A stretch of 52,788 nt of DNA from a virus (Duplodnaviria > Caudoviricetes), in the IMG/VR virus record IMGVR_UViG_3300042516_004385, positions 1-52,788 of that record; one strand, 5' to 3'. Positions 15,627-47,912 of this stretch are shown in pieces. The notes beneath the pieces are model-generated. The model did no database searches and had not been told where the DNA came from. It saw nothing but the letters and a program-made list of their open reading frames with translations. Every line of letters starts with the position of its first letter. The first letter of the stretch is position 1. The position numbers were made by a program, and so were the translations under genes.

Positions 15627-16190
15627 ATGGCAAAAACTACAAAAATAAAATGCAATTGTCCAAGTTGTGGGATCGAAAGGTTTGTAAGAGGAGATAGAAG
15701 TCATAGGGTTTGTAGAAAATGCTCCTATAAAAAAATATCTGAATCTCGTAAAGGGTGGATACCTTCTGAAGAAACTAAACAAAAAATGTCAGAAGGAGCT
15801 AAGAAAAGAACATGGACTGAAGAAGAGAAAGAAAAAAGAAAACAAGGGTTAATAAAAGCTCATACTGGAAATAAATATAGTTTAGGTAAAAGAAAAGAAA
15901 ATTCAAAATATTCAGAAAATTATAGAGATAGAAGAATATTTAGAGCAGCTTTACAAAAATTGATATTTGAAAGAGATAATTATTCTTGTAAACATTGTAA
16001 TAAAAAAGGAGGATATTTACAAGTAAACCATATAAAAGAATGGTCAAAGTTTCCAGAGCTAAGGTTTGATATTGACAATTGTGAAACTCTTTGTATGGAC
16101 TGTCATTATAAACATACATTTAATAAAGAAAAACCAAGTCATATAAAAAATTGGGGACATAATTTAAGTAAAAAGTTAGAAAAAAAATGA
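15627..16190 (+). mobile_element. free-standing HNH homing endonuclease with N-terminal Zn-ribbon and NUMOD3-like repeat
   Basis: CPSC...CRKC, SEETKQKMSE, ERDNYSCKHC...QVNHIKEW...NCETLCMDCH; visibly more A-rich than flanks. Confidence 0.85.
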
Positions 16191-30397: not shown

Positions 30398-31651
30398 ATG
30401 GCAACTCCTACTTTAAAAGAACTCAAGTATCGGACCTTTGATGATCTCATGACGGAGATCTATAATGACTTGCCCTCACTCAGCAGGGAAGGTCTTATTG
30501 AGCCGGCACAACTGATCAAAGTTGCACAAAGGGTAAACCAGGAACTTGGCCTTAAGATAAACAGAGTAAAAGAAACAATCCTTCAGTTGGAGTTTGGTCG
30601 TGCTAAACTTCCTGATGACTTTCATGTACTGAACCTTGCACTGTTATGTCATAACTATACTCTTCAGGAGCCAGGTCTTTTTAATGGTATACAGAACGAA
30701 ACCAGAGTTACACCTGTACAGAATCCAAACAGCATTCCTCAGCGTACTTCATGTCCTTGTTGGACAGTAGTTGCCCAGGCTGTGCAAGCAACGGTTACTT
30801 ATTGCGATGGTACCGTAGATTCTGTTTTCTTCCCTGCTAATACGGATGGTTCTCCAAAAACAACAAAGCTTTGTGCAAGTACTATAGTAAAAACAGGCGG
30901 TGGAAGTTTTAGTGCTACTACCAATTCGAATTGCTGGAACATTCCGGCTACCGGTCAATTGAGTTGTACTATTCCGGAGGACTGTGGTTGTAACACTCCT
31001 AATATAGATAGTTGTTCAGCAGTAAATACAGATCCTTGGAACCAGAATAGAGTGTACACTACTTGTGACAATACAATGCAAGTAACAGTTATCGAGTACC
31101 ATTCTAACCAGATAAGAGAATACCGGGAGTTCCAAAAGATATACATGGTGTCTTCAAAAGAGGCAAGTGCTTTTTGTATGAACACTCAGTTTAGAGATGC
31201 TCCTCACCAAGGTCATATACAGAATGGATTTATCTATGTTCCTACCATGAGAGATTATGGTCAGAGAACAGATGAGAATCTGCACAATGGTCATGGTAAG
31301 GTGTACATATCTTACATGGGTGCAATGGAAGATGAGGAAGGTAATCTTCTTGTACTGGATCATCCTAAGATCAATGAGTACTATGAATGGGCAATTAAAG
31401 CTCGTATCTTTGAGAACATGTATCTTAATGGTGAGCCGGATATTGAAAGGAGATTGGATCTTGTTAAGAGAGAACTCAAAGTAGCAAGAGCAGAGGCATT
31501 ATCAATAGCAACAATGCCTGACTTCTACGAACTGAAGAAAACTATAGAGCAGAATAGAAGAGCAATGTATCACAAGTACATGCATCCGTTTAGTTCACTT
31601 TATGCGAACACTCCGGGATGGCCATGGTCTTATAATAACGAGTATATCTAA
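30398..31651 (+). CDS. tail ring/tubular protein (P22 gp4-like) with Cys-rich insertion
   Basis: GRAKLPDDF, GKVYISY...DEEGNLLVLDHP..NEYYEWAIK; central Cys-rich segment. Confidence 0.6.
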   Translation: MATPTLKELKYRTFDDLMTEIYNDLPSLSREGLIEPAQLIKVAQRVNQELGLKINRVKETILQLEFGRAKLPDDFHVLNLALLCHNYTLQEPGLFNGIQNETRVTPVQNPNSIPQRTSCPCWTVVAQAVQATVTYCDGTVDSVFFPANTDGSPKTTKLCASTIVKTGGGSFSATTNSNCWNIPATGQLSCTIPEDCGCNTPNIDSCSAVNTDPWNQNRVYTTCDNTMQVTVIEYHSNQIREYREFQKIYMVSSKEASAFCMNTQFRDAPHQGHIQNGFIYVPTMRDYGQRTDENLHNGHGKVYISYMGAMEDEEGNLLVLDHPKINEYYEWAIKARIFENMYLNGEPDIERRLDLVKRELKVARAEALSIATMPDFYELKKTIEQNRRAMYHKYMHPFSSLYANTPGWPWSYNNEYI

Positions 31652-34600: not shown

Positions 34601-36459
34601 CTTATGATTTTCTTGGAAGAGTATCAAGAAATCGTAGACTAGATGGACCTCTGAACCTTTGGATTTTGGGAGGAGGTGGAGGACTCTTTTCTTTAAAAAC
34701 AGGTTATTTCTATCTTTTTAATAATGGTGTCCGTGACTTCTTTGTTGAAAGTTCTGTCAATGTTGGCTATAGGGATTGGGAAGATATGACTGCAAAAAGG
34801 TTCTATGATCCTTACGCATCTGCCAATACCTTTATTAACGAGATGTTCCGTTCTGATATTATCAAGAGCAACACTCTTTATAAATACGACTTCTCTTTAT
34901 CAAGCAACAGGTTCATCAACCAGTTTATTTCCTGGGGCCAGTGTTTAAGAAGAGACTATGATCCTATGCTGGCATACACATGCTTTGCTTACTATCCTCG
35001 TAGGGTGGCTTATTCTTTGCCACAGGAAGAGGAGCAGATGCAGGACAACTGGAGGATCTTCCTTCCCAACAACTATAAGGATTTCAATGACAGAGTATAC
35101 GTCATCAAAGATCTTCATAAGACCGGTGCAGTTTTCCTGATGGAGAATAGTTCACCAATGATGTTTGCCGGTATTGAAACAATTCCTTCAAGAAGTGGAA
35201 CTGAGTACAGCGTAGGAACAGGTGCACTGTTTAATCAAACACTACAGTCAATAAACAACATTGACGATCCTTACGAATATGGATCTTGTCAAAGTAGACA
35301 AGGTGTAGTGAATACTCCACATGGAGTGTTCTGGGTATCACAAGATACAGGTAAGATCTTTAATTTAAAAAGTGGACAACTTACAGATCTTGGTATAATG
35401 GATAACATAAGTTACCACTTGTATCACTATTTACCTTCACAGTTAACACAACAGGTTCCATCTTTTCCATTAAAGGATAATCCTGTAAGTGGTGTAGGTT
35501 GTCAACTTGTTTACGATAGTAGTCATGAAATTCTTTATATCTGTAAAAAAGACTATGGTGTTCGTCCGAATGCTGCCAATTATTACAATGGTCAATGGTA
35601 TGTCGGCCCATGTCCTCCAGGAACTGCTCCTGCCGGGACTGATCCTGTTACAGGTAAACCCATATGTGTTGCATGTTTAGATGGTACACCTTGTCCTGGT
35701 GTAAAGGTAACATTTGGAGATCCAAGGTATTTTGATGATGCAAGTTGGACACTCTCGTTTGATTGTGTAACAAAAACTTTTGTTAGCTGGCACGACTGGC
35801 ATCCTTCTCATGTAATACCATCTAAGATAGGATTCTTTACTGCAAATGGTCTGTCCGGAAGATTGTGGAGACATAACTTTGATAATCAGTCATTTGCAAA
35901 CTTTTATGGAGTAGATTATCCTGTAGAGATAGAATACTATACTAATACCCAGGTAACAGAAACTGTTTTACAAAGTGTCGAGTGGTTGCTTGAAAGCTAC
36001 CAGTATGCACCTAATGGTACGGATAAGTTTCTGAACTACGATGAGAACTTTGATCAGGTAATGATCTATAACAGAGAACAGAACAGTACTCTTCAGAACA
36101 TGTTCCTCAAACCTTGGAATGATCCTTATGCTGCATTGAGCTATCCGAACTTCTCCGGCCCTACAAGGCAGGTTCTGTATCAGAAGGTAGAGAATAAGTA
36201 CAGACTGAATGACTTCTACGATTATACAAAAGATAGAGGACAATTCTTTGTAACTTCGAATATCCCAATGATTACAACGGATCCTAATGGTTATACCTTT
36301 AGTACCAATACACCTTACTTTGATCTTTCAAAACCATGGAACCAACTTAAGAGAATGAGGTTTATGGGTACAAGGATCTTTATGAGGAAAAGGAACCTGG
36401 GTAAGAATAGTTTAACAATCAGGTATGCAAATACTAAAAACCAATATTCACCACGATGA
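31651..36459 (+). CDS. tail muzzle / stabilisation protein (P22 gp10-like)
   Basis: 1602 aa; NTFTGGMVKD, YTHARN, VYWSDG.LNP, YLRGEVYAF, FGGDTYI, TPHGVFW, WTLSFD...VSWHDW typical of the crAss muzzle. Confidence 0.75.
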   Translation: MAKQEEQEENVPQKGNSPIVGSTNTFTGGMVKDPVDLFKKSNTYTHARNMSTFLPDGQLGGRSSELANIPSALVPYTIIGSAFLGDGSWIIFSTNNTLSEIGIFSENSNSYSTLMNDAVTIVSINPITGTFYSGLGFKTTNLITAVARRGYDCGFDVYWSDGGLNPDRILNTATCPWTIGAFPTSPPKTVPNPWVQNCITTAACVDCYNTNKIDIEQLRLAPLLDVPCIKLSKSKSGGLLPNGSYQVCVAYAVNSIKCTDYLAFSDVYSTFTHLNNGGCIDVTIEGISDSTKIRFTELEVVVISMVNQQVQAKRLGIYSTNQGKITIDNIDLTLPNIPIEKLPISTPAIVSSDAIFGISNYLTRVGPKEYPDFNYQPLANKIETYWAAVEYPEDYYHVGGNDYGMNVSYLRGEVYAFFIRWIRNTGDKTASYHIPARSVPTPASNAIGLPGGPSVPGSISTVMYGRTGVYVSNEKYPDRSPAVWTVLCGQNIMHHRMPDQADAGGTWLSHFNPHGAPPTGTPGTISILGVYFDQIAYPVDINNNPVPGIVGYEILRASRDGHQSIIAKGMINNIRKVSDNQGNPQLFANYPYNDLGRDEFLTENFSNVVNGQAGNGFEVNDCVPEYNSNPAISGFDNNKWSFHSPDTVFKHPYLGKGTLEVVMGLNGQSTGLFQTPYRHPQFKVMTDFVGYLTFIAGATFIAIQAIQAITMGLGGDAPDIKMAATESLPISFPILANTSTTIAGSTAPGAISIAATGANIAILAALFPIQLSAFQQQLLNIIKGLVKPSQYALQYNSWGYYNKPVSQPRIPAAVNDYQYIKDQMQSFAGYTVNNLYRNDYVIMNTDQVIPPFPFGDIQSRFRIYNSSLDSDDQIKPNNWENRHIGSYYAAYKVPQLSQYGQIDSTKQVPIGCAQQIVYKAAPGTLPPSPVMFGGDTYINRYTEKNPFMFFNDWLVNAPDDFTYDYRNYINVPYPMFWINNDVLTYDFLGRVSRNRRLDGPLNLWILGGGGGLFSLKTGYFYLFNNGVRDFFVESSVNVGYRDWEDMTAKRFYDPYASANTFINEMFRSDIIKSNTLYKYDFSLSSNRFINQFISWGQCLRRDYDPMLAYTCFAYYPRRVAYSLPQEEEQMQDNWRIFLPNNYKDFNDRVYVIKDLHKTGAVFLMENSSPMMFAGIETIPSRSGTEYSVGTGALFNQTLQSINNIDDPYEYGSCQSRQGVVNTPHGVFWVSQDTGKIFNLKSGQLTDLGIMDNISYHLYHYLPSQLTQQVPSFPLKDNPVSGVGCQLVYDSSHEILYICKKDYGVRPNAANYYNGQWYVGPCPPGTAPAGTDPVTGKPICVACLDGTPCPGVKVTFGDPRYFDDASWTLSFDCVTKTFVSWHDWHPSHVIPSKIGFFTANGLSGRLWRHNFDNQSFANFYGVDYPVEIEYYTNTQVTETVLQSVEWLLESYQYAPNGTDKFLNYDENFDQVMIYNREQNSTLQNMFLKPWNDPYAALSYPNFSGPTRQVLYQKVENKYRLNDFYDYTKDRGQFFVTSNIPMITTDPNGYTFSTNTPYFDLSKPWNQLKRMRFMGTRIFMRKRNLGKNSLTIRYANTKNQYSPR

Positions 36460-36561: not shown

Positions 36562-36999
36562 ATGCAACTAAAAAAGCCAATCTCTCCAATGTCCACAATG
36601 CCGGTGAGCATGGGAATGTCATCAGGAATGAATCCTGATATGATAATGAGCAAGTTGTTCAATATGCACACAAAGGCTCACTTCTACCATTTGCAAACTA
36701 CAAGCTTTGCCCAACACAATATGTTGAAAGGTCTGTATGAAGATCTTGAAGATAGCAAAGATGCAATCTCTGAGTACCTGTTAGGTATCCAGGCCCCTAA
36801 AAGATTTGGTGCACTTGCAACTGAAGCAGTAGAACCATTTAGTGAAGGAACTGTTGCAAAGTTTCTTGACGAAGGGTTTGGTTTTACAGTAGCACTGTGT
36901 GATTATGCAAACACTAAAGGACTGGAAGAACTGTGCAACCTTTCTTCAAACTTGCAAGGTTCATTTGCAAAAGCTAAATATCTCAATACCCTTAAATAA
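36562..36999 (+). CDS. ferritin/Dps-like four-helix protein
   Basis: AHFYHLQTTSFAQHNML..LYEDLEDSKDAISE matches the Dps-like His/Asp/Glu pattern. Confidence 0.7.
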   Translation: MQLKKPISPMSTMPVSMGMSSGMNPDMIMSKLFNMHTKAHFYHLQTTSFAQHNMLKGLYEDLEDSKDAISEYLLGIQAPKRFGALATEAVEPFSEGTVAKFLDEGFGFTVALCDYANTKGLEELCNLSSNLQGSFAKAKYLNTLK

Positions 37000-37007
37000 T
37001 CTCAGAA

Positions 37008-38249
37008 ATGGGTTGGTTAAAAAAGTATCAACAAGGTGGTAAAAAAGACAAGGGTTTCTCTATTGAAGGTCGGGTAAACAAATGGTTAAACGATCCTCAG
37101 GGAAAAGCCCGTAAGGATGCTGAGAACAAATCAGGTGATGGTGACGAGGAAATTGACAACATCCGTCATGCATCTGCCGGCAGATATGCAGCAGAAGCTA
37201 TTGCCAATAAAACCGGCAATATTCCTTATGTCTCAAAACCATTAGGTGTAATTGGTGCTAACATCATGGGTCTTGGTCATGAGATTGGTACTTACGTTAC
37301 TGATCCGAGATGGACAGATAAAAACTGGAAAGTCAGCAATTTTGATAAAGCAAAAGTTATATCAAGAGAATTATTAGAAGATGCTTATAACAACTTTGCC
37401 GGTTCTGTTATAGGTGCAACAGATATGACCCCTGAGCAAAAAACAGCAAGGATAAAATATCTGTCACAAAACTATATGATACCAGATGGCTATGGTTTAC
37501 TCCATCCTTATGGAGATAACCCAACTTTTGTGGATCCTTACAGTAAGAAAAAGTACGGTGGGTACTCTACTACCGGCTACAAATCAAACTCTCCTGATAA
37601 AGATAATCCTTACAACATCATACCATCAGGAAGAATAACAATGCAGAATGTACCACATCCTGTATTGGACATTGATAACCTTGGTAACAGACAAATGATG
37701 AGGCCAGGAGGTGAGTACCAGTTCCAGGGAGATCAGGTGTTTGAGATGCCGGTTATGAAAGAAGGTGGTATTCCTGAAAGGTACAAGAACATGGGCTTTA
37801 CACATGTCGGTCAGAAAAAGGCCGGAGATGGTCAGCACAAATGGAAAGTTCTTGCAAAAAAAGGGGATAGCTACAAAGTAGTACAAGGTGGTTACAGAGG
37901 AATGCAGGATTTCAAACAGCACCACTCTGAAGAGAGGAAAGATAGATTCTGGGATCGTATGGGAGGTAGAAACTCCTCAAAGGCTAAGGATCCATTCAGT
38001 CCCCTGTACTGGCACAAAAGGTTTGGTACCTGGGAATACGGTGGACCAGTACCTTCTTCCGAGATGTATAAAGATGGTGGCATGATCAAAAGAGCAGATG
38101 GTTCCTACTCTCAAAGAGGGTTATGGGATAACATCAGGGCAAATGCCGGCTCCGGTAAAAAGCCAACCAAGGAGATGTTGCAACAGGAGAAGAAGATCAG
38201 AGCTGCTGAGAAGAAGGAATACGGAGGCTGGTTGTCCAAATATAAATAA
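37008..38249 (+). CDS. modular internal virion (cargo) protein 1 with xxGG-delimited domains
   Basis: Four dissimilar modules separated by YQQGG, KKYGG, MKEGG, WEYGG, YKDGG, KEYGG. Confidence 0.7.
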   Translation: MGWLKKYQQGGKKDKGFSIEGRVNKWLNDPQGKARKDAENKSGDGDEEIDNIRHASAGRYAAEAIANKTGNIPYVSKPLGVIGANIMGLGHEIGTYVTDPRWTDKNWKVSNFDKAKVISRELLEDAYNNFAGSVIGATDMTPEQKTARIKYLSQNYMIPDGYGLLHPYGDNPTFVDPYSKKKYGGYSTTGYKSNSPDKDNPYNIIPSGRITMQNVPHPVLDIDNLGNRQMMRPGGEYQFQGDQVFEMPVMKEGGIPERYKNMGFTHVGQKKAGDGQHKWKVLAKKGDSYKVVQGGYRGMQDFKQHHSEERKDRFWDRMGGRNSSKAKDPFSPLYWHKRFGTWEYGGPVPSSEMYKDGGMIKRADGSYSQRGLWDNIRANAGSGKKPTKEMLQQEKKIRAAEKKEYGGWLSKYK

Positions 38250-38305
38250 GGAAAAGTCACGGAAATTGAGTAAATTTATTATAGATAATACTAAAACAAT
38301 ACACA

Positions 38306-40318
38306 ATGCATAAGTTCATGAAAATGGCCGGCTGTAATACCGAAGAGGAGTTTTACCAAAAGTACCCCTCTGAGAAGGATTTCTTTGCAGCGTATCCTCA
38401 TATGAAAGGTAATCAAACAATGAAAATGGGAGGAGCTGCTTCTGGTCACCCGGGTTCTTACTGGAATGGAGATCAGTGGGTATCATCTGCCGGTGACTCA
38501 GGAACATATGCCAATGGTGTATATTACGCTACAGGTGGTCCGGTCTTTATGCCGGGAGGTAGTGCACCTATTTTCGGAATGGGTGGGGCTGCATCTTTTA
38601 ACATAAGCAACAATGAATACCCTACTCCTTTTGCAATGGCACCGGGAACAGGTAGAGGTGGAGGATATCTTCAGGACCTTCCTACACACATGGCACATGG
38701 TGGCCCAATCCCGGGAGCTGAGATAGTGGATCCTTTTGCTATGTACCCAGGTACCGGCAAAGGTGGTGGTATGTTACAAGACTTACCTGTAGAGATGAAG
38801 AAAGGAGGGATCCATATTGCACCATCAAAGAGAGGAACCTTTACAGCAGCAGCTACAAAACACGGAAAGAGTGTACAAGCTTTTGCTTCCCAGGTGCTGG
38901 CCAACAAAGAGAACTACTCTCCGGCCATGGTAAAGAAAGCAAACTTTGCAAGGAATGCTGCCAAGTGGAAACATGAGTATGGTGGAATGTATCAAGATGG
39001 TGGTCCGTTATTACCAAATAACCCATCTGGTTATGTTGATAGTGTTATAAATGCTAATCAAGAAAGTCCTTTTTATAAAGATCTTAAAGCAGGAAGAGTT
39101 CCTAAAAATGTAGATTTTTTTCAAAATGATAATTCTCATGAATGGGATAGAAAAGTAGAAGATCTTAATAACCCTTATGTAGGTAACTCTACGGACTTTT
39201 TACCTCATGGTTCTTATATAGGATATAATCAATGGGGGACTGGTAGACCGGCCATGTATATGCGGATACCACAAGACCAATCTGTAAATCCTGTTAGCAG
39301 AATGTATATAGGAGCAGGACCAGATAATGTAATAAAATTTCCAAGTAAAACTGCTGCTAATATATTTCAGCAAGAGATAGAAAAAAGGATAAGTTCTGGT
39401 AAAAAAACTAAAGAGTATGGAGGATCAACAATACCAGACAACCCAGGTTTCAGAGCCCTTCCTCCTGCAGTACAGCAAAAGATAATGGACAATATGCAGA
39501 CCGGTGGCATGGTAACTGCTGATAGGGTAGTCTATGGTCCAGGTGGTCAGTATATGGAGCAGGGTGGAATGGTTAATCCATACCACCCAATGGCTAAGTT
39601 TATGAGAGGTGGTTATTATCAAAACGGTGGTCAATATAATGTAGGTCAGTATGTACCGGGTTTAGGTTACTGGAATGGATCAACTTTCCAAGCAACAAAT
39701 CCTAAGTTGTTTGCAGCAAGCAATATGGGTGAAGCAGAAGAATATCCAAGTGAAATGCCTACTGTACCGTCTCCAATGCCAAAAATGGAAAATTTTAATA
39801 AGAGTACACCTACAGAAGAAGCTGTTCAACAAACTCCAAATTCTACAACAACTAACACTACTTCTACAAACACTACAGATAATTCTCAGTCTGATTATTC
39901 AGGATGGGATAAAACAAGAGATTGGAGCAATGCTATCCTTGGTACAGGCATGGCTGCTCTTGGTGTAGCAAGTGCATTTGCTGATAGAAGAGATGCAAGA
40001 AACTTAAGAAACAAGCAGTTCAACGACAGAAGCAGTGCAAACATGTATGCTGCAGTAAATCAACCGGGAGGTAAAGGTGACTACACACAACAAGGTGTAT
40101 TCAGGCCGGATTCAATGACTCCTACTGCTGCCGGCAAATTCTATCCGGGTATGCCAGGTAGTTATAATCAAGGAATGGGAATAACAGCAAAAATGGGAGG
40201 TGTAATGAATAACTATACCTTTGCACACGGTGGTTACCATGTTGGACAGGAACTTGAACTTTCTGATGCTGAGATAGCTAACCTGAAAAGAATGGGTTAC
40301 AAATTTGATATTCTCTAA
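38306..40318 (+). CDS. modular internal virion (cargo) protein 2 with about 16 xxGG motifs
   Basis: Gly/Met/Tyr/Pro-rich and low complexity; basic IHIAPSKRGTF...ANFARNAAKW module; a hydrophobic helix near the C-terminus. Confidence 0.7.
   Translation: MHKFMKMAGCNTEEEFYQKYPSEKDFFAAYPHMKGNQTMKMGGAASGHPGSYWNGDQWVSSAGDSGTYANGVYYATGGPVFMPGGSAPIFGMGGAASFNISNNEYPTPFAMAPGTGRGGGYLQDLPTHMAHGGPIPGAEIVDPFAMYPGTGKGGGMLQDLPVEMKKGGIHIAPSKRGTFTAAATKHGKSVQAFASQVLANKENYSPAMVKKANFARNAAKWKHEYGGMYQDGGPLLPNNPSGYVDSVINANQESPFYKDLKAGRVPKNVDFFQNDNSHEWDRKVEDLNNPYVGNSTDFLPHGSYIGYNQWGTGRPAMYMRIPQDQSVNPVSRMYIGAGPDNVIKFPSKTAANIFQQEIEKRISSGKKTKEYGGSTIPDNPGFRALPPAVQQKIMDNMQTGGMVTADRVVYGPGGQYMEQGGMVNPYHPMAKFMRGGYYQNGGQYNVGQYVPGLGYWNGSTFQATNPKLFAASNMGEAEEYPSEMPTVPSPMPKMENFNKSTPTEEAVQQTPNSTTTNTTSTNTTDNSQSDYSGWDKTRDWSNAILGTGMAALGVASAFADRRDARNLRNKQFNDRSSANMYAAVNQPGGKGDYTQQGVFRPDSMTPTAAGKFYPGMPGSYNQGMGITAKMGGVMNNYTFAHGGYHVGQELELSDAEIANLKRMGYKFDIL
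38627..38809 (+). repeat. internal duplication of a GG-terminated module
   Basis: PFAMAPGTGRGGGYLQDLPTHMAHGG versus PFAMYPGTGKGGGMLQDLPVEMKKGG. Confidence 0.8.
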
Positions 40319-40329
40319 ATTACAATATA

Positions 40330-43300
40330 ATGGCCAAAATTAAAATAAAGGCAGTTCCTAAAATGCAAACTGGTGGATATGCTCCACTCACTTCTCAGGA
40401 AAGAGATGCCTGGGAAAGAATGCAGTCTGCTGCCTATGAACAAGGATTTTTAGGTAGTGAGCATAATAGACAACCAGGTGTTGACTTTATGAGACAATAC
40501 GGAGTTGATCCTAACAGATTGTCTGCATACCAAGCTGATCTTCTTGAGCAAAGAAATGTTGCTCCATGGGGAAGACCTGGTGCTTACATGGCCAAGGGTC
40601 CTGAAACAACTTTTAGTAATGTTGATGCCTTTTACGGTCCCAAGACTGCAAGAGAGAGATATGGACAATATTCAATTAAAGAAGGAAACAAACCCGCTGT
40701 AAATTTTGGTACAGATTGGAAAGCGGCAACTGCTTATAGTAATCAACTGGAAGCTGCTCGTCAAGCTGAATATAAAGACTACGGTAAACCAGAGGCTAAT
40801 ATAAACTACCAAGCTCCGGAAGCTCCGGTTACTACACCAGCCCCAAGAGCTACAGGTTTAGCTGCTACAGGTTTTCCTACCCGGGAAGAGGCTGTTGCAA
40901 AGTACAAGGCAAGAAAAGCATCTGGCCAAGAACTACCAAGCAATTACTTTACCGGTAAAGGAAATGCAGACTATTCTATTGATAGTTTGAGAAGTACAGG
41001 GAAAGGTTCTGATGAGTTTGCATATGGTGGTTCTACAAAAAAGATCCGTATCAGTGGTGTACCGACAATGGCTACCGGTGGATATGCTAATAAAGATGCA
41101 AGTCATGGTTACGGTAATCAACAACTTGGTCAAAGTTATGCATTGAACAGATTCTGGAATACTCCTGCCGGGTATCCTTTTACTACCTCTAAAGTTAATC
41201 CTTATGGAAAGGTAGGCAATACTTTACCTGAGGCTAAGGATGGTGGTGATATCAATGCTGAAAAGCAAGAAATGGTACTTGGTGACTTTGATCAGGATGG
41301 ACAACAGGAATTGATGAATGTTGATGGACCTCCTCACACAGAAGGTGGTAAGGATGTCAATGTTCCATCTAACTCATTTGTATTTTCTGATACAAAAGAT
41401 CTGAAGATAAAAGATCCTCAGATCCTTGCCATGTTTGGAATGGCACCAAAGAGAGGTGGTTATACACCGGCACAGATAGCTAAGAAGTACGATCTGAACA
41501 AGTTCAAAAAGATCCTTGATGATCCTAATGCGGATGATGCATCTAAGAAGACTGCTCAGTTGATGAATGACAACTATCTGTCTAAACTTAACAGGCTTGC
41601 ATCTGTACAAGAATCAATGAAGGGTGCAATGGGTATGGAGTATCATGATCCACAAAGAGGTCAGGTACCGGCTGAAGAAGCACCTGTACAAGAAGTAGGT
41701 AATATGGATCAAGGTGGTACAGAAATGATGCAACCTGAAGAAATGATGATGGAATACGGAGGTGCTCCTAAGTACCAAACTGCCGGTATTTTTAATTCAA
41801 AATACACAAATTTTTTAAATTCTGCAAAACAGGATTTGCAAAAACTGTACCCGGGCAAAAGTGTAAACATTGTAGAAACAAGTACATACAGACATCCTTC
41901 AACTCAAGCAGGTTTGGTTAAAAAAGGTGCATCTACTACAGATGTATCTTTACATGCAGTAAATGCGGCTAAAGATTTTCAGATACTTGTAAACGGTAAA
42001 CCTGTAAATGATCCTGAATTATATCACGATGTTCTTTGGAAAAATGCAGAAAGAAATGGTCTTTACCATTTAGACCCTAAAGGTTTTGGAGCAAAAGATC
42101 TTGGTCATATTGGGGTAATTGAAGAAGATGGAAAAAGTACTTATGGAAGACTGATTGATGCATACCCTCAGATAAAAAATACTAAGGAGTTTAATGCACT
42201 TTTTGAACATGTAAAAAATAGAGTAGGTTCTGGAAATCCAACACCTAAAGAGTTATTGGTTTACAATCAGTTACAAGGACAGCGTTATGAACCGGAGCTT
42301 TGGTATAAACCAATGTATCCTGCTACAGAAAATGCTACATCCCCTTTACAAGAAACAGTTACAAAAAGTAAAGTTTCAAGGCCGGTAAATCTCCCTATCA
42401 AAAAAGGAATACTGACTGCTCGTGAAGTTCCTGTACCACCTGTTTTACAAACAGATACTGATAATAAAAATAGTAATGTGAATATAAATGATTGGGTGAT
42501 GTCTGAATATAAAGGTCAAATACAAAGACCTACAATGCAGTATGCCGGACTATACCCAACTACATTACAATCTTTAGGTACTGTTCCTAATTGGCAAGAA
42601 GCTATTCCTGTAAGCCAATGGACTCCAAATACTAATGCAAATCAACAAGTTGCTAAAACTGTACCTTCTCCGTATAAAATGCAACCTTCCGTTGCAAAAC
42701 AGCAACAAAATCCTGAATTGCCATATAATGAGTTTTTGGATATAGTTGGTAGAAATCCAAATTTGGATAGATTACCAATAACAGGGCTATCTTCTCCTTA
42801 TTCTTTAGAAGAATATCCTGTACCATGGGCAGGTACAAATTACCAAATGCAAGGTCAAGAAGTATTGCCCCTTCGTCCTCTTTCTGTTTCGCCTCAGACA
42901 TCTGCAGCAACTGCTGTAAATGTTCCCCCAATGACACCTTTTGTTTCTACTGATACAGAAGCACTTGTTACAAACGAAAACAAAAAGAAAAATAGAACAG
43001 CTAAACAAAGAACGGGGATTTTTGCAAACCCTAATCTGTACGGTGATGTAATGAATCTTGCTCAGATGGCACAGCTTAGAAAATTTGTACCATATGAACC
43101 GGTACCACAGGCTGTTATTCCTGAAACAGTATTTATGGATCCTACCCGGGCAATAGCTGCTCAACAGGAGATGGCAAGGAATGCTATGGAAATGGCCGGT
43201 CAAAGTGCCAATGCAAGAGCTGCAAGAGCAACAGGTCTGGCATACCAGGGAGAGGCAGGAAAACAAGCTGCAGATACAATAGCACAGTATGCTAACCAGA

Positions 43301-44442
43301 ATGTTGCTATAGCTAACCAGGCAAATGCACAAGCTGCACAGATAACCAACCAATTAATGGCAATGGAAGCTAACAGGCTGGCCGAACTTAATAAGGGCAA
43401 CTTCTTGGCTGCTAGGGATTATCAAAGGGAAATGGGTAGACTTCAAGCTGAATGGGCTGACAGGAAGCAAAAACAGCACGATACTGCAGTTAAAACAGCG
43501 TGGCTTAATAAAACATCTCCATACTTTAACATTGATCCTTATACACAAATGCCGGTGTTTAAACCCGGTGATGCAGAAGCAAGGTATTGGAAAGATATTA
43601 AAGGTGGAAGCGATGGTAATTTCCCAGACATGATTTCAAAATTGATGTCTGAGAAAGGGTGGTCATTTGAACAAGCTCTTGCTGCTCTTACTAAGGGTAC
43701 AGGTACTGTAAAAACTCAACATACAGATCCTGTTACAGGGGATAAAACAACCAGTACAGGTACTGCTGCAGGTAAATATGGAGGTATGATGAGGTATGGT
43801 GGTTCTCACATGGCAATGCCGGAAATGGCACCTTACTATCAAATAGGAGGAAACTTTATACCACTTGCAGGTGGCCCTGACGTATCATTTAATGCAGTAG
43901 ATAATACTGCCTATACAATGCCTGTACAAAGTACAGAACCTTTGGAGATAGAAACAGAACAGTCACCTTTAAAAGGTTTGTCGTCAAAAAAGGCAAGCAG
44001 AAGAGATATTGCTACAATAACAAACAACCCGGGCAATATGATCTATAGTCCTAAGTTTGGTAAGTTATTTGGAGCAGTAGACTCCGGTATTAAACAAAGG
44101 GATGGTAAAGGTCACTTTGCTATGTTCCCGGATCTCAACACAGGTTTTAAAGCTTACCAGACACAACTCTTTGGTGAAGTAGATGGTGTTATGAAATCAA
44201 ACTACTACAAGAAAGATACTACTGTTAACCAAGCTTTAAAGACTTGGAGCAATAATGGTTATGATGGTAGTATCTACCCTGAGGTAAAAAACAAGAAGCT
44301 TTCTGAACTTACAATGGCAGAAAGAAATGAACTTGCTAAGAGGCAGATAAAACATGAATCAGGTGATATGTATAAGCTGCTCCGTGAAAGAGGTGTGTTT
44401 AAAAAATATGGAGGTAGTGCCTTACAAAAGTTCATAAGATAA
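40330..44442 (+). CDS. large cargo/ejection protein with M15-like peptidase and NNPGN lysozyme-like domains
   Basis: xxGG motifs; TYRHPSTQ...SLHAVNAAKD...DLGH; TNNPGN...FAMF...KHESG; Gln/Ala coiled coil. Confidence 0.7.
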   Translation: MAKIKIKAVPKMQTGGYAPLTSQERDAWERMQSAAYEQGFLGSEHNRQPGVDFMRQYGVDPNRLSAYQADLLEQRNVAPWGRPGAYMAKGPETTFSNVDAFYGPKTARERYGQYSIKEGNKPAVNFGTDWKAATAYSNQLEAARQAEYKDYGKPEANINYQAPEAPVTTPAPRATGLAATGFPTREEAVAKYKARKASGQELPSNYFTGKGNADYSIDSLRSTGKGSDEFAYGGSTKKIRISGVPTMATGGYANKDASHGYGNQQLGQSYALNRFWNTPAGYPFTTSKVNPYGKVGNTLPEAKDGGDINAEKQEMVLGDFDQDGQQELMNVDGPPHTEGGKDVNVPSNSFVFSDTKDLKIKDPQILAMFGMAPKRGGYTPAQIAKKYDLNKFKKILDDPNADDASKKTAQLMNDNYLSKLNRLASVQESMKGAMGMEYHDPQRGQVPAEEAPVQEVGNMDQGGTEMMQPEEMMMEYGGAPKYQTAGIFNSKYTNFLNSAKQDLQKLYPGKSVNIVETSTYRHPSTQAGLVKKGASTTDVSLHAVNAAKDFQILVNGKPVNDPELYHDVLWKNAERNGLYHLDPKGFGAKDLGHIGVIEEDGKSTYGRLIDAYPQIKNTKEFNALFEHVKNRVGSGNPTPKELLVYNQLQGQRYEPELWYKPMYPATENATSPLQETVTKSKVSRPVNLPIKKGILTAREVPVPPVLQTDTDNKNSNVNINDWVMSEYKGQIQRPTMQYAGLYPTTLQSLGTVPNWQEAIPVSQWTPNTNANQQVAKTVPSPYKMQPSVAKQQQNPELPYNEFLDIVGRNPNLDRLPITGLSSPYSLEEYPVPWAGTNYQMQGQEVLPLRPLSVSPQTSAATAVNVPPMTPFVSTDTEALVTNENKKKNRTAKQRTGIFANPNLYGDVMNLAQMAQLRKFVPYEPVPQAVIPETVFMDPTRAIAAQQEMARNAMEMAGQSANARAARATGLAYQGEAGKQAADTIAQYANQNVAIANQANAQAAQITNQLMAMEANRLAELNKGNFLAARDYQREMGRLQAEWADRKQKQHDTAVKTAWLNKTSPYFNIDPYTQMPVFKPGDAEARYWKDIKGGSDGNFPDMISKLMSEKGWSFEQALAALTKGTGTVKTQHTDPVTGDKTTSTGTAAGKYGGMMRYGGSHMAMPEMAPYYQIGGNFIPLAGGPDVSFNAVDNTAYTMPVQSTEPLEIETEQSPLKGLSSKKASRRDIATITNNPGNMIYSPKFGKLFGAVDSGIKQRDGKGHFAMFPDLNTGFKAYQTQLFGEVDGVMKSNYYKKDTTVNQALKTWSNNGYDGSIYPEVKNKKLSELTMAERNELAKRQIKHESGDMYKLLRERGVFKKYGGSALQKFIR

Positions 44443-44519: not shown

Positions 44520-44542
44520 TAATTGTTTAACTCGTATATTTA
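44511..44542 (+). promoter_or_regulatory. promoter TTTG-N20-TATATTTA
   Basis: Bacteroidota-type spacing; ATG at 44550. Confidence 0.7.
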
Positions 44543-44549
44543 TACTGTT

Positions 44550-47500
44550 ATGGATTATAATTGGCTCGAAAATGTCCCAAGCAGCCTAACACCAGTGCCG
44601 GTGTACCAGCCTGATTTTGGTTTTCTGCAAAGTATGCAAATGAAAGCTAATCAGCAATATGAGCAGGGATTTAAAGAAGTAAAGACTGCATACTCTTCTC
44701 TTTTTAATAAGAAGGTAACTGGTGAAGAAGCTACCAAGCGGCAGCAGGATTATAGCAAACAGGCACTTGACCAAATGAAGGCCATTGCTGCTACGGATCT
44801 GTCTGATCCAAAGAATGTGCAGATAGCTGATGATATTCTGGCCCCGTTTTATGAAGACAAGCTTTACTTGCAGAACATTGCAGATACCTCTCATTATCAG
44901 AATGAGTTTGCCAAACAGGAGGCAATGAAGAGTGCCAAGACTAAAGAAGAAAGAGAACTTTACAATCCTGTTATAGATTACTATTTGGGTAAAGGTTATG
45001 AGCAGCTTGCAAAAGCTCCTATGACCAATGAAGCATATGGTAAACTGGAGAGAAGGAAATCTATAGGTGTTGTAAATATTTCAGAAATTGCAAAAAAGCA
45101 GATAAGTGATGTAGGTTATATAAAAACTGTTGATGCCAATGGTAATGCAATGGTTATTACCACAAATGGACCAAAATCTGTAGAGGCATACTCTTCTGTA
45201 TACAAGTCAATAGCTGCCAGGCCGGAGTATGCAGAGCAAAATAGAGTTCTTTCTATAGCCAGGTTCGAGATGGAAACTGATCAGATCAGAAAAGATAATC
45301 CCAATTTATCACAGGATCAGGTTAATGGCTTAATTGCAGATAAAGCAATAGCAGGTAATGTAAAATGGTATGCCGGCAACATTGCTGATTACAGAAAAAC
45401 TGCAGCAGAATGGAGAAGAAAGAATATTGTTTATATGGATCTTGATGAAAACGGTTATCCTAAAGACGGTGTAGGAAAACCTCTTTCTATTGAAGATCAA
45501 CAAAATATTGAATATAACCTTAGTCAGGCAAAAGCTTTTGAAGAACAAGCAAAAAGAACCGAAGAGCTTTTTACTAAAGAGTTTGGTTATGTTCAGACAG
45601 ATCCGACTAAGTTTTCAACAAACATTGAAGATTATATCAAAGCAGTTGATCCTAATTCAGATCTTTACAAGAAAAGAGTATTAGATATAACAACAAACAC
45701 AAAGGATTACATACAGAATGTATATCTGTCTCAGGATGCAGATGCTTTTGCTAAAGGCCTGGCAAACCTTTCATCTATAGAGATAAAGGTAAATCCTGTA
45801 CAGCAAGAAGTAAATAAACAAGTTGCAGATGCATTCAAGCAACAAATGGACTTACTTAAGACTGAAGCCGGGATTGCACAAAAGCAGGAAGAAATTGATA
45901 TAAAGCTGTTACAAGCTAAAGCAAAAGCAGGTACCCTTTCTCAAGAAGATTTGGACAAGTATTACGGTCAAGGGTTTACAATGAAAGGTGTAGGTGCTTC
46001 TGCATCTCAATCAGGTATTGATGTTGGATCAGGTGATGTATATATGACCGGTACAAACGTCAGAAAGGTATCGACAATAGACAGCCTCAATCTTGCTAAA
46101 TTAAAACTGGCTACTGATATCAATAGAGAGTCATTTGGAGCAGATGGGATGCTGAACATGGCATCTGAGGATATTGTACCAAATGGTCTAAATGGTCCCG
46201 AGATACTTACTCTTTCCGGTGCATACAACAACTATCTTGCTACAGGTAAATATGACAATTCCTCATTAGCAGAGCGTGAAAAAATAGCTAATGTTCTAAA
46301 CAGTCTTCCTGAAAATAAGAACAAGAAATTTACTGCAGATAGTCATCCTAACGATATAAGAGAGGCACTTGGAAATATGGCTCGTACAGATGCTGCAGAT
46401 CCTCTTTTTAAGACAGTAAATCCTGAAAAGCAATCACTTGTCATGAAGATGGCATTGCAGAACCAGGTTATACAAAAGAACTCTGCAGAGCTTTTAAAAC
46501 TAAATGGAGATTATCAAAAAAACCTATCAGAATTTCTCAGAACAAACAATACAAAAGGGGAATTTAATAAGTTAATAAAAACTACAATTGATCCTAAAAC
46601 AGGAGAAAAAACTTATGACATAATTACTGCTAAAGATATGGCTTCTTCTTTTCCAAGTCTTACTGTAAAAGATAAAGAAAAAGGAGAAATTACTTTTACT
46701 CCTGAACAAGTTGCAGAAATGTGGAAAAATAAAACCATTGGTGAATTATTTAAAGACCAAGGTTCTCATATTGTTGGAGTAAATAAAAAAAGAATAGAGG
46801 ATTTTAAACATTTTATGCCATCAATGAATCGTGATGAATTGATGAAAGAGTGGCATAAATATATTTATGGTACATATAAAAGCCCCGCTACAGGAGGAAG
46901 CGGTCTTGATTATGTTACAGTTATAAGAGACAATTCACATCGTTGGGACAATGTTCCACCAGATCCTAACACGCCTGCAGCTAAATACGGTTCACCTGAT
47001 GAGATTCAAAATAAATTAAATACACTGTCATCAAAAGTAGTTGCTAATTTACCTCAATTTGCTACAGGGGAGTCTTCTCCTGAACTTACTTTTGATCTGT
47101 CTGGTACAGATAAACAAGAAATTGATCCTGTACAGAAAAAGACTGGTGAAGCTATAATAAAAACTATGCAATCTCCTATTAACAGGAAGAACATGTATAT
47201 TGTAGATGGTAGCAATAAACAAATTGAAAATGGTATTGATACTGATATACAAAAAGCAATAACAAATGCAAAGTTCAAAGACTTTATTTATGATATTGCT
47301 GGCTCAGTAACATACATTCCTTTTGGTCCAAACGGTGTGCCGGCTATTCGTATAAGCACTCAGCTTGGAAAAGGTGATAAAGACAATGAAACAATAGGAG
47401 GTGTTAGTGTTGCTAAAATTAAAAGTCTTGACACTATTTATATGGATATTGCAGACAATGCAAAATCTGAGGTATTGCAACAATTACCAAGACCTGAAAC

Positions 47501-47912
47501 ACTATACCGTTATGGTCAACTTCTTACTGATCCAAAAGGTATAACACAAGACGATTTTGAAAAAGCAAATGGTTTTGTGTACACAGTAAAACCTGATCCT
47601 AACAGTAAGAATGAAAAAGGTTTATTTACAAGGATGTATGTATATACAAGTCAGTGGCAAGTTGATGAAAAAACCGGCCAGTTTATAATGGAAAACAGTA
47701 AACCTAAATCTACTCCACAAGCAACTGCAGTATTTAATGTAGGTGAAGGTGGTTATAGTATTGATCATATCTGCGAGGATATGAAAAATAACTGGATATT
47801 GGGAGAGATGCAAAAAAGAAGGATGTTACTAGATGCTAATAAAAATAAACCTTCCTCATCTAACACTCAAACATTTGGTGATATTTACAAGAAATTTGGA
47901 TTCCAACAATAA
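44550..47912 (+). CDS. large internal virion / ejection protein
   Basis: PVYQPDFGFL...QQYEQG, DLSDPKNVQIA..ILAPFYED helical N-terminus; start moved from TTG 44523 to ATG 44550 because the former lies inside the promoter. Confidence 0.7.
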   Translation: MDYNWLENVPSSLTPVPVYQPDFGFLQSMQMKANQQYEQGFKEVKTAYSSLFNKKVTGEEATKRQQDYSKQALDQMKAIAATDLSDPKNVQIADDILAPFYEDKLYLQNIADTSHYQNEFAKQEAMKSAKTKEERELYNPVIDYYLGKGYEQLAKAPMTNEAYGKLERRKSIGVVNISEIAKKQISDVGYIKTVDANGNAMVITTNGPKSVEAYSSVYKSIAARPEYAEQNRVLSIARFEMETDQIRKDNPNLSQDQVNGLIADKAIAGNVKWYAGNIADYRKTAAEWRRKNIVYMDLDENGYPKDGVGKPLSIEDQQNIEYNLSQAKAFEEQAKRTEELFTKEFGYVQTDPTKFSTNIEDYIKAVDPNSDLYKKRVLDITTNTKDYIQNVYLSQDADAFAKGLANLSSIEIKVNPVQQEVNKQVADAFKQQMDLLKTEAGIAQKQEEIDIKLLQAKAKAGTLSQEDLDKYYGQGFTMKGVGASASQSGIDVGSGDVYMTGTNVRKVSTIDSLNLAKLKLATDINRESFGADGMLNMASEDIVPNGLNGPEILTLSGAYNNYLATGKYDNSSLAEREKIANVLNSLPENKNKKFTADSHPNDIREALGNMARTDAADPLFKTVNPEKQSLVMKMALQNQVIQKNSAELLKLNGDYQKNLSEFLRTNNTKGEFNKLIKTTIDPKTGEKTYDIITAKDMASSFPSLTVKDKEKGEITFTPEQVAEMWKNKTIGELFKDQGSHIVGVNKKRIEDFKHFMPSMNRDELMKEWHKYIYGTYKSPATGGSGLDYVTVIRDNSHRWDNVPPDPNTPAAKYGSPDEIQNKLNTLSSKVVANLPQFATGESSPELTFDLSGTDKQEIDPVQKKTGEAIIKTMQSPINRKNMYIVDGSNKQIENGIDTDIQKAITNAKFKDFIYDIAGSVTYIPFGPNGVPAIRISTQLGKGDKDNETIGGVSVAKIKSLDTIYMDIADNAKSEVLQQLPRPETLYRYGQLLTDPKGITQDDFEKANGFVYTVKPDPNSKNEKGLFTRMYVYTSQWQVDEKTGQFIMENSKPKSTPQATAVFNVGEGGYSIDHICEDMKNNWILGEMQKRRMLLDANKNKPSSSNTQTFGDIYKKFGFQQ

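Follow-up and report, generated by a model that had tools for sequence, protein, structure and literature searches.

A hydrophobic-GG motif that brackets modules in the candidate cargo proteins of a crAss-like phage

Our analysis concerns a short protein motif, a hydrophobic residue followed closely by two glycines, that punctuates three consecutive genes (ORF1, ORF2 and ORF3) in a window of 52,788 nucleotides of viral DNA. The window is a fragment of a crAss-like phage, and the data support the view that the three genes encode its virion cargo (ejection) proteins. The motif is enriched beyond the composition of these proteins and conserved across their family, and in alignments it brackets conserved mini-modules and marks the sites at which modules are gained or lost. 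We propose that it may stay uncleaved and serve these mosaic ejection proteins as a hinge between modules, a reading to which we give an even chance.

Enrichment of the motif and its position at module borders

The sequence-only reading of this DNA had counted about 30 copies in the three ORFs, and all 31 of its GG pentapeptides and both AG variants were recovered. Scored as [YMFW]xxGG or [YMFW]GG, the pattern matches ORF1, ORF2 and ORF3 8, 16 and 9 times against shuffle means of 1.7, 3.4 and 2.3; ORF2 is the densest of the three, at 2.4 per 100 aa. The excess holds after correction for composition, as none of 5000 shuffles preserving the composition of each protein reached the observed count in any ORF. 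Bare GG dipeptides are only mildly enriched (9, 21 and 14 against 6.2, 10.9 and 9.5 in shuffled sequences), and thus the signal lies in the hydrophobic residue that precedes GG: Y, M, F or W stands at -3 or -1 of 33 of 44 GGs in the cargo ORFs, compared with 17 of 79 in the window's other 36 ORFs. The large flanking genes are motif-poor, as had been claimed, with at most 5 copies in the 1602-aa ORF, none in the 1129-aa ORF and 1 in the 1622-aa ORF.

Across 285 homologues the motif is in 3.6-5-fold excess (1123 vs 258, 1221 vs 240 and 373 vs 103 in shuffled sequences). The residue at -3 of GG is Y, M, F or W in 53%, 60% and 45% of cases, whereas -2 is depleted of these residues (6-7% vs a background of 13-16%). 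Conserved GGs form nearly invariant columns amid otherwise variable linkers. The motif uses Gly codons in the same way as the sequence overall, and its GG hexamers are diverse (8 different); the signal is at the protein level. The Gly content of ORF1, ORF2 and ORF3 (12.3%, 12.8% and 8.4%) would favour chance in proteins rich in Gly, Met and Tyr, but this explanation, whose probability we regard as practically nil, is refuted by the shuffles, since neither the 5000 for each ORF nor the 200 made family-wide ever reached the observed counts. A position near both termini had also been claimed; this describes ORF1 (GG at 10 and 406 of 413) and ORF3 (15 and 1361 of 1370), is less true of ORF2 (42 and 642 of 670), and does not extend to the family, as the termini of 282 homologues are not enriched (motif in the first 20 residues in 71 and in the last 20 in 62, where uniform placement expects 69.8).

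The proposal that the motifs lie at module borders is borne out by homologues in which conserved mini-modules are bracketed by GG (Table 1). The three-helix module of ORF2, modelled at pLDDT 83-88, has GG 1-4 residues after its end in 92 of 95 copies, and in 72 of the 95 GG stands before it. It matches 2241 cluster representatives at E<=1e-3, with most of the best 150, phage proteins that are otherwise unrelated, at 75-95% identity; ORF2 166-231 is 91% identical to homologue P0051 over 66 residues, and the module also exists as stand-alone proteins of 75-123 aa. The DUF5754-like module, the best-folded portion of ORF1 (pLDDT up to 92), has GG before it in 82 of 91 homologous copies and xxGG after it in 99 of 102. 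The C-terminal mini-module of ORF1 recurs at the extreme N-terminus of other proteins, and the C-terminal element of ORF2 is common to proteins of 116 to 788 aa. For some modules, conservation extends to thousands of phage proteins, and those of relatives include cell-wall enzymes (lysozyme, SLT, glucosaminidase and YkuD).

Gain and loss of modules at the motifs, the core of the earlier plug-in idea, is equally apparent: indel boundaries lie exactly beside GG in 12 of 40 cases (1.8 expected) and, at flank identity >=0.8, within 3 residues of GG in 12 of 13 (3.0 expected), the aligner's possible preference for anchoring on GG-rich motifs being able to inflate the result at low flank identity. 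Examples are found in P0123, P0122 and P0010. P0123 and P0124 lack exactly module A of ORF1, the joint falling at GG, and both joints of the optional ORF2 module are at GG. The first motif-dense linker of ORF2 contains a tandem 35-aa duplication (101-135 and 136-170), with additional copies in P0016 and P0020, and tandem runs of motifs without an intervening module occur at ORF2 77-94 and 400-442. Gly makes up 23% of the motif-dense linkers, in which Pro, Met and Tyr are also abundant. In the AlphaFold models, 5 of 8 motif GGs of ORF1 and 16 of 16 of ORF2 fall in segments with pLDDT <50, which suggests disordered linkers but may stem from shallow alignments (37 and 40 sequences). The confident islands of ORF2 (1-30, 171-221, 443-465 and 645-670) start or end at motifs, and ORF2 550-573, beside the glycine-zipper-like stretch, is modelled as a helix. 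In the ORF3 family the most invariant portion is the conserved helical region.

Table 1. Cargo genes, their modules and neighbouring genes (positions in the window; residues in each protein).
Feature	Position	Strand	Remark
Muzzle-like (tail 'stabilization') protein, 1602 aa	31651..36459	+	PHROG matches; motif-poor
145-aa ORF between muzzle-like and cargo genes	36562..36999	+	DUF5856, Dps-like PHROG
Cargo ORF1	37008-38249	+	413 aa, 8 motif copies; parts common to 1149 database proteins
ORF1 module A, residues 12-183	37041..37556	+	helical, optional
ORF1 DUF5754-like module, residues 255-341	37770..38030	+	PF19058 3.2e-05, below cut-off
ORF1 C-terminal mini-module, residues 359-402	38082..38213	+	also in P0051
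Cargo ORF2	38306-40318	+	670 aa, 16 motif copies; 2259 proteins at E<=0.001
ORF2 motif-dense low-confidence linker, residues 62-170	38489..38815	+	pLDDT <50
ORF2 ultra-conserved three-helix 60-aa module, residues 169-223	38810..38974	+	phrog_20603 1.2e-4
ORF2 optional module, residues 233-371	39002..39418	+	missing in most close homologues
ORF2 second motif-dense linker, residues 399-442	39500..39631	+	5 motifs in 44 residues
ORF2 hydrophobic glycine-zipper-like helix, residues 541-559	39926..39982	+	top Kyte-Doolittle window 1.31
ORF2 conserved C-terminal element, residues 645-670	40238..40315	+	pLDDT ~75
Cargo ORF3	40330-44442	+	1370 aa, 9 motif copies + 2 AG variants
ORF3 optional module, residues 17-232	40378..41025	+	missing in P0257, P0259; joints at GG
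ORF3 candidate CARG1-like domain, residues 318-438	41281..41643	+	hhalign 85.5% probability, E 5.7e-6
ORF3 weak endolysin-like stretch, residues 517-568	41878..42033	+	phrog_465 3.4e-4
ORF3 conserved helical region, residues 897-1078	43018..43563	+	invariant columns of ORF3-family alignment
ORF3 C-terminal motif cluster, residues 1148-1182	43771..43875	+	P0250-P0252 deletions begin there
Downstream 1129-aa ORF	44523..47912	+	motif absent
Downstream ORF >1622 aa	47922..52787	+	1 motif; runs past window end

The cargo genes of a crAss-like phage

The major capsid protein of the window matches Crass_capsid at 1.2e-28, and the window makes up about 41% of a genome. ORF1-ORF3 appear to occupy the crassvirus position of the genes for ejected cargo proteins: gene order and sizes match those of cr128_1 and nine IMG/VR loci, with the upstream identity weakly matched and the downstream genes unmatched, and the motif is restricted to the cargo genes in 9 of 9 related loci. 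The muzzle-like protein matches phrog_37948 (9.7e-40) and phrog_15100 (6.5e-25), both 'virion structural protein', and has no PDB match; its position and size equal those of the cr128_1 stabilization protein, with which it is collinear despite a direct BLASTP E of 0.06. The 145-aa ORF matches PF19174 (DUF5856) at 1.8e-07, below cut-off, and phrog_858 at 4e-11, and contains no GG. Searches of PHROG, PDB and phage records gave no match to the 1129-aa ORF. The >1622-aa ORF sits at the crassvirus slot of RNA-polymerase-associated proteins, a putative identity by position; neither large downstream ORF has a match, and DFDxD is absent from the portion within the window. The 421-aa ORF between portal and MCP is likewise without a match.

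The assignment of ORF1-ORF3 as cargo proteins follows from the modules that they share with CARG1 proteins and from gene order. P0051, for example, carries crAss_CARG1, and P0060, with the same 60-aa module as ORF2, matches gp45 of PDB 7qog at 1e-105. The gene for gp45 of ΦcrAss001 (cargo protein 1) follows the muzzle gene, as the cargo ORFs appear to do here. Like ORF2, gp45 has a Gly-rich hydrophobic helix, a stretch of gp45-like proteins to which ORF2 541-559 is comparable, and holds a divergent copy of the 60-aa module at about 373-423. ORF3 may contain a domain like its compact, portal-bound CARG1 domain, as indicated by a profile-profile alignment (hhalign of the ORF3-family alignment, A3, with the gut C1-protein alignment, A4), and ORF3 is probably the counterpart of crassvirus cargo protein 1. 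The cargo ORFs have no direct Pfam or PDB match to gp45, and none of the three matches crAss_CARG1 (PF25725) in Pfam at E<=0.1. In contrast to gp45, the features are split here over three genes, and the motif is far denser, with up to 2.4 per 100 aa compared with 5 copies in the 854-aa cr128_1 homologue. The endolysin-like assignment of ORF3 517-568 is tentative, with Peptidase_M15_2 at only 0.12.

Possible roles: hinge, cleavage site or sticker

The cargo proteins are mosaics of small, apparently self-folding modules carried on predicted-disordered linkers rich in Gly, Pro, Met and Tyr. The signature, hydrophobic at -3, polar at -2 and any residue at -1 before GG, caps each module and opens the next linker. 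In the proposed model it would work uncleaved: a short strand-like hydrophobic 'clasp' would end the module, and the GG break would then provide a flexible hinge. Each module could thus fold or unfold on its own, both during packing of the chain into the cargo zone and on its way through portal and tail. As all modules start and end alike, recombinants joined at the signature would stay functional, and modules could therefore be gained and lost in plug-in fashion. The ejection proteins of T7 (gp14/15/16) and P22 (gp7/16/20) are packaged in the head, exit before the DNA and must unfold to get through the tail. They may include domains of cell-wall hydrolases, enzymes that are found here among the modules of relatives. 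They have no sequence relation to the cargo ORFs, and we know of no GG-punctuated bead-on-string build among them. Both sets of proteins are mentioned in the consulted part of the ΦcrAss001 structure paper (PMC10172136).

The earlier reading had offered cleavage as one role of the motif, and this is not supported. We consider it fairly unlikely that the cargo proteins serve as polyproteins, with a host protease or an unrecognised one of the phage cutting behind GG, either inside the capsid or once ejection has taken place, and releasing small effectors such as the three-helix module, and slightly less likely still that they yield a cocktail of mini-proteins, a phage counterpart of adenovirus core maturation with plug-in effector delivery. 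Adenain, PLpro and ASFV S273R cut at GG-type sites, which the motif resembles, and the adenain, S273R and poxvirus I7 systems likewise involve virion-internal proteins with repeated hydrophobic residues and GG. An adenain-type site, which has its hydrophobic residue at P4 of x-G-G, is ruled against here, as the residue lies at P5 (-3, 45-60%) or P3 and P4 (-2) is depleted. Stand-alone module proteins do begin and end at motif borders (cr10_1 gp63, of 75 aa, P0305, P0314 and P0309), and some one-module proteins retain a short leader ending in the motif, as a cut site would predict. The neighbour of cr10_1 gp63 is a gene annotated 'peptidase' with HExxH, Vibrio phage qdvp001 has, next to its portal gene, a DUF5754-like module fused with a prohead protease of the XkdF type, and in relatives L006 and L009-L011 the first cargo ORF contains GG-bracketed HExxH modules. 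Against this, profiles of eight families (adenain (C5), C39, C48, C57, S78, XkdF-type S78_2, ClpP and JAB) matched 0 of 5 records each, the window being included for 7 of the 8 and the relatives being 62-98% complete, three of them at 92-98%. These results cover the clan CE proteases suggested earlier (PF00770, PF02902 and PF03290), the double-glycine leader peptidase C39 (PF03412) and prohead-type proteases (PF04586, PF14550 and PF00574). The scanned window ORFs contain no PHROG or Pfam protease, and HExxH is absent from the three cargo ORFs and the two large downstream ORFs and rare in homologues (5 of 288 vs 1.9 by chance). In phiKZ-like giant phages (e.g. SPN3US) the head protease processes ejection and inner-body proteins, and T4 internal proteins have a cleaved capsid-targeting leader; ORF1 and ORF3 could have comparable short leaders, with GG at 10-11 and 15-16, but T4 and phiKZ sites terminate in Glu rather than GG, and the prohead protease families were not among the records searched. 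Pro follows 5.6% of 2677 motifs, tandem motifs would give peptides of 6-15 residues, and the unenriched termini also argue against cutting. The gp45 dipeptides 427-428, 434-435 and 447-448 are intact within residues 425-552, modelled continuously in the virion, although gp45 is a distant relative and these GGs lie inside a folded domain; in the view argued by the authors of the structure, a single gp45 chain reaches from the tail barrel into the capsid (both from the part of PMC10172136 consulted). Neither 'cleav' nor 'proteol' occurs in that paper (PMC10172136). In favour of processing, the consulted part of a preprint notes for crAss-like phages that a Zincin-like protease domain is packaged in the virion and that there are fused polyproteins, 'likely cleaved' (Drobysheva et al., bioRxiv 10.1101/2020.03.07.982082).

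A docking tag, the other role suggested earlier, found no positive support as such, and it is fairly unlikely that the motif is a multivalent short linear motif that binds a virion partner (capsid interior, portal or tail barrel) or itself, so that motifs in Gly-rich spacer would bring in the cargo and keep it as a dense, fluid mass that can be extruded. A pure hinge needs no position-specific Y, M or F at -3, and the hydrophobic residue at this fixed position may therefore have a partner; the tandem arrays fit a multivalent 'sticker' better than module capping, and the linker composition, the GGs conserved amid variable linkers and the restriction to cargo genes in all nine loci are in keeping with it. 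No partner of the motif is known. Encapsulin cargo-loading peptides are single, terminal tags; the motif may resemble them by analogy as a short, Gly-containing hydrophobic peptide that could tag the interior of an HK97-fold shell, but it is internal and repeated. An encapsulin-type terminal targeting peptide was rejected on the terminal counts given above, which weigh against docking in general. In the consulted part of the ΦcrAss001 paper the ordered, partner-bound cargo segments are only module bodies; both ordered gp45 segments have hydrophobic-GG elements at their edges and start at or 4 residues after one, which would suit a sticker, yet the motif preceding residue 214 is not resolved in the virion (PMC10172136). 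That the motif is a functionless scar or hot spot of module recombination is very unlikely: indel joints do coincide with it, but its ordinary Gly codons and diverse hexamers leave no DNA-level homology to recombine on, and it is kept in place among orthologues, around modules never seen moving and in tandem where nothing joined.

Implications for crassvirus cargo proteins

Crassviruses rank with the most abundant viruses of the gut. The motif is not discussed in the consulted part of the ΦcrAss001 structure paper (PMC10172136), nor did we find it mentioned in the parts of the literature consulted. Should the motif prove to be a cut site or loading tag, it would give tailed phages a new mechanism of maturation or packaging, and could serve as a handle by which foreign cargo is loaded. 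As a simple, conserved punctuation mark set between the interchangeable modules of thousands of cargo proteins from metagenomes, the motif shows how these unannotated proteins can be divided into units and explains their extreme mosaicism. It singles out units that can be tested, namely the ultra-conserved 60-aa module, DUF5754, DUF5872 and the cell-wall enzyme modules.

A short GG element in three cargo genes

The three ORFs exist as the sequence-only reading had described them, and all of the motif instances that it listed were found in them. The motif ([YMFW]xxGG or [YMFW]GG) occurs 8, 16 and 9 times in ORF1, ORF2 and ORF3, against shuffle means of 1.7, 3.4 and 2.3, with 0 of 5000 shuffles reaching the observed counts; the flanking giant genes are motif-poor, as had been claimed, with at most 5, 0 and 1 copies. 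Tyr, Met, Phe or Trp stands at position -3 or -1, counted from the first Gly, in 33 of the 44 GG dipeptides of the three ORFs; for the remaining 36 ORFs the figure is 17 of 79. The same pattern runs through the database homologues, where 119 relatives of ORF2, 119 of ORF1 and 47 of ORF3 hold 1123, 1221 and 373 motifs (shuffle means 258, 240 and 103, with shuffle maxima far under the observed counts). In these homologues the four residues occupy -3 in 53%, 60% and 45% of GGs (ORF2, ORF1 and ORF3), -1 in 23-32%, and -2 in 6-7% vs a background of 13-16%; position -2 is mostly small or polar (A, Q, E, K), and the residues following the GG are enriched in I/V/Y/L. Judged from this residue pattern, the motif is a defined short element, in which what would be a strand-like alternation leads into a GG break, and not a loose compositional feature.

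The tandem duplication in ORF2 listed in the table has additional copies of its unit in two relatives (P0016 and P0020). Nine copies of the motif are present in gp041 of Cellulophaga phage phi17:2, which its record lists as a virion structural protein and assigns to a non-crass phage.

Coordinates of the features discussed, in the window unless a related record is named
Feature	Position	Context or content
Terminase large subunit ORF	5020-7341	PHROG match
Portal ORF	7359-10106	PHROG match
421-aa ORF	10187-11452	between portal and major capsid genes; no Pfam/PHROG match
Major capsid protein ORF	11489-13111	Pfam crassvirus family, 1.2e-28
HNH endonuclease ORF	15627-16190	inserted amid tail-fibre-like genes
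Muzzle-like ORF	31651-36459	1602 aa
Small ORF	36562-36999	145 aa; between muzzle-like and cargo genes; sub-threshold DUF5856 match; Dps-like PHROG match; zero GG
ORF1	37008-38249	413 aa
ORF2	38306-40318	670 aa
Tandem 35-residue duplication	38606-38815	ORF2 residues 101-170; each unit ends in the motif
Three-helix module	38810-38974	ORF2 residues 169-223; 55-60 aa
Conserved C-terminal element	40238-40315	ORF2 residues 645-670; acidic helix, then G-Y-x-F/Y-D/E-I/V-hydrophobic at extreme end
ORF3	40330-44442	1370 aa
D-F-D-x-D string	41284-41298	ORF3 residues 319-323
HExxH-bearing first cargo genes	L009/L010 7488-9857; L011 7455-9854; L006 6161-9982	HExxH modules without Pfam match
cr10_1 gp64, gp63	L004 4649-6180	60-aa module copy and 'peptidase'
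qdvp001 gp133	L003 1225-2232	DUF5754-like module and XkdF-type protease

Modules, their borders and their exchange

Among 8000 scored candidates, 2259 relatives of ORF2 were found at E<=0.001, most of which match only about 60 residues (ORF2 166-226) at 75-95% identity, the rest of the protein being different. This three-helix module has 2241 matching cluster representatives at E<=1e-3 and 1339 at E<=1e-10; of the best 150, most carry it at 75-95% identity to the query and a few at 54-72%, and these carriers are less than 50% identical to each other overall. It may lie anywhere in proteins of 87-1791 aa, sometimes in two copies, and has stand-alone forms of 75-123 aa. In some records it is annotated as a 'transcriptional regulator'.

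Conserved mini-modules are bracketed by GG independently of their neighbouring modules. GG comes within 1-4 residues after the 60-aa module in 92 of 95 copies and before it in 72 of 95, and for a DUF5754-like module GG comes before in 82 of 91 copies and xxGG after in 99 of 102. Most of each AlphaFold2 model (mean pLDDT 47.8 and 54.1; 37 and 40 sequences in the input alignments) has low confidence, apart from small confident islands, which in ORF2 start or end at motifs; all 16 motif GGs of ORF2 fall in segments below pLDDT 50, as do five of eight in ORF1, where a sixth adjoins a border. By composition, the low-confidence segments of ORF2 are 16% Gly, 8.5% Pro and 6.7% Met. The predicted disorder may be exaggerated by the shallow alignments, and an ESM Atlas model of ORF2 is as poor as the AlphaFold2 one.

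The expectation that modules are gained or lost at the motifs is borne out by aligned homologues, and favors plug-in modularity. One ORF1 homologue (P0123) is missing residues 12-183, with the joint at a GG, and has 223 additional residues at another motif; in P0122 about 195 additional residues lie between two motifs, and P0003-P0011 are without ORF2 233-371, with GG at both joints. Pairwise alignments with the 13, 28 and 28 closest of the 119, 119 and 47 homologues gave 383 raw gap runs of at least 15 residues (62, 99 and 222 for the three ORFs), of which internal ones were kept and merged if within 6 residues, at a flank identity threshold of at least 0.6 (0.5 and 0.8 were also applied). 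The resulting 27 distinct indels have 40 boundaries, 12 directly beside a GG (1.8 expected) and 23 at most 3 residues away (7.2 expected); raising the flank identity threshold to 0.8 leaves 13 boundaries, 12 of them no more than 3 residues from a GG (3.0 expected). Motifs are rare in the C-terminal two thirds of ORF3, and the indels there lie far from any GG.

Cargo proteins of a crAss-like phage

The major capsid, terminase and portal matches, with a CheckV completeness of 41% for the 52,788 bases, identify the window as a fragment of an uncultured crAss-like phage. Its large ORFs are all on the + strand, and tail-fibre-like genes lie downstream of the head genes. The interval between portal and major capsid genes, the usual site of a scaffold or protease gene, holds the 421-aa ORF. 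Further on, the muzzle-like gene and the small ORF precede the three motif genes, which are each in a different frame, separated by stop codons, and so are not one continuous reading frame, and two giant genes follow. Nine related IMG/VR loci have the same order, with motif richness limited to three (once four) genes 3' of the muzzle-like gene and 2.5-3.0 motifs per 100 residues in the middle motif gene of seven. In cr128_1 a 60-aa-module gene directly follows the 'stabilization' (muzzle) protein and precedes a second hypothetical gene and an RNA-polymerase subunit; the identities of the neighbors as muzzle and polymerase genes are weakly assigned.

The 'cargo' label of the sequence-only reading is well founded, because modules are shared with C1 proteins, the relatives of gp45 (cargo protein 1 of ΦcrAss001), and because of the gene order, which agrees with that of cr128_1, and the ΦcrAss001 cargo data (PMC10172136). 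A 60-aa-module carrier, P0060, matches 'Cargo protein 1 gp45' (PDB 7qog chain M) at 1.2e-105, and P0051 joins a copy 91% identical to that of ORF2 to a second mini-module found in ORF1. At residues 318-438 the ORF3 family profile aligns to the CARG1 domain that gut C1 proteins carry (85.5% probability, E 5.7e-6). Among ORF2 relatives many have crAss_CARG1 and others phage lysozyme, YkuD, peptidoglycan-binding or glycine-zipper domains (Pfam); the ESM Atlas pointed to crAss_CARG1 clusters only below threshold. As described for ΦcrAss001, gp45 and gp46 belong to the cargo of the virion and are kept in both capsid and tail; they are presumed to leave it N terminus first and partly unfolded, and to build the trans-envelope channel (PMC10172136).

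Pfam and PHROGs searches with single modules gave only weak hints in ORF3 (M15/endolysin-like and injection-transglycosylase-like stretches), and Foldseek of the low-confidence ORF1 model against the PDB gave nothing at E<=0.001. Phmmer against PDB sequences returned zero matches for ORF1-3, the muzzle-like ORF and the two downstream ORFs, as did tblastn against phage records for ORF3 and the 1129-aa ORF. The D-F-D-x-D string in the CARG1-like domain of ORF3, near-invariant across the ORF3 family, is spelled like the catalytic motif of crass virion RNA polymerases; it lies within a small domain and is missing from gut C1 proteins, and the resemblance is probably a coincidence.

Cleavage, docking or hinge

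The sequence-only reading had offered the motif as either a cleavage site or a docking tag. The clan CE or other protease that was to be looked for did not turn up: adenain, C39, C48, C57 (poxvirus I7-type), S78 (HK97-type), S78_2 (XkdF-type), ClpP and JAB each matched 0 of 5 records, among them relatives with completeness ratings of 92%, 96% and 98% whose cargo genes are motif-rich, and none of the window ORFs scanned has a protease match in Pfam or PHROGs. An adenain-type site has its hydrophobic residue at P4, whereas the motif places it at P5 or P3. The sole HExxH among window ORFs is in a tail-fibre-region protein. A hint towards cleavage comes from Zincin-like HExxH modules, about 150-270 residues long with GG motifs on either side, in the first cargo gene of four related loci; HExxH is not enriched (5 of 288 homologues vs 1.9 by chance), and neither these modules nor the cr10_1 'peptidase' has a counterpart in the window (tblastn E at least 0.99). 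For the processing of fused chains speaks the account of Drobysheva et al. (bioRxiv 10.1101/2020.03.07.982082), which mentions a packaged Zincin-like domain, and also fused polyproteins that it calls 'likely cleaved'. In the ΦcrAss001 virion gp45 is modeled over residues 425-552, which by the published ranges have a hydrophobic-GG at their start and two further GGs inside; the other ordered segment, 214-245, has a Tyr-GG four residues ahead of its start. Peptides from the stretch that separates these segments were detected, and the authors favor a single chain spanning tail and capsid (PMC10172136). We consider processing sites rather improbable.

A multivalent binding motif is also unlikely, if somewhat less so. 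The fixed hydrophobic position, the module-free tandem arrays and the conservation of GG in variable linkers leave room for a role in binding or self-association; in the ΦcrAss001 maps, as reported, the ordered cargo parts are module bodies and not motifs (PMC10172136). A terminal tag as a family-wide property is ruled out, the motif being no commoner at protein ends than expected among homologues. A better candidate for a packaging signal is the C-terminal element of ORF2, common to proteins of 116-788 aa (P0361, P0366, P0002, P0010) and to the middle cargo gene of related loci. That the motif is a by-product of recombination would fit the indel boundaries, and is very improbable: its Gly codons match general usage and the GG hexamers are diverse, so that constraint acts on the protein and a DNA-level explanation is ruled out. 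Compositional chance, in view of the shuffles, is practically negligible, and a small remainder falls to none of these explanations. We favor the motif as an uncleaved module cap and hinge, a reading to which we give an even chance.

Modules of this pool are found in head-assembly neighborhoods too. In cr10_1 the 60-aa module forms a protein of its own (75 aa) that adjoins the HExxH 'peptidase' between portal and capsid genes, and Vibrio phage qdvp001 has, beside its portal gene, a fusion of a DUF5754-like module with an XkdF-type protease. Both arrangements hint at processing.

The literature searched holds no mention of hydrophobic-GG punctuation, and just two papers on DUF5754, both concerning algal viruses. 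The GG punctuation of crass-type ejection proteins is real and family-wide, and apparently undescribed; the proteins themselves belong to the already known crassvirus cargo proteins, and it is their GG-punctuated, bead-on-string build that is new.
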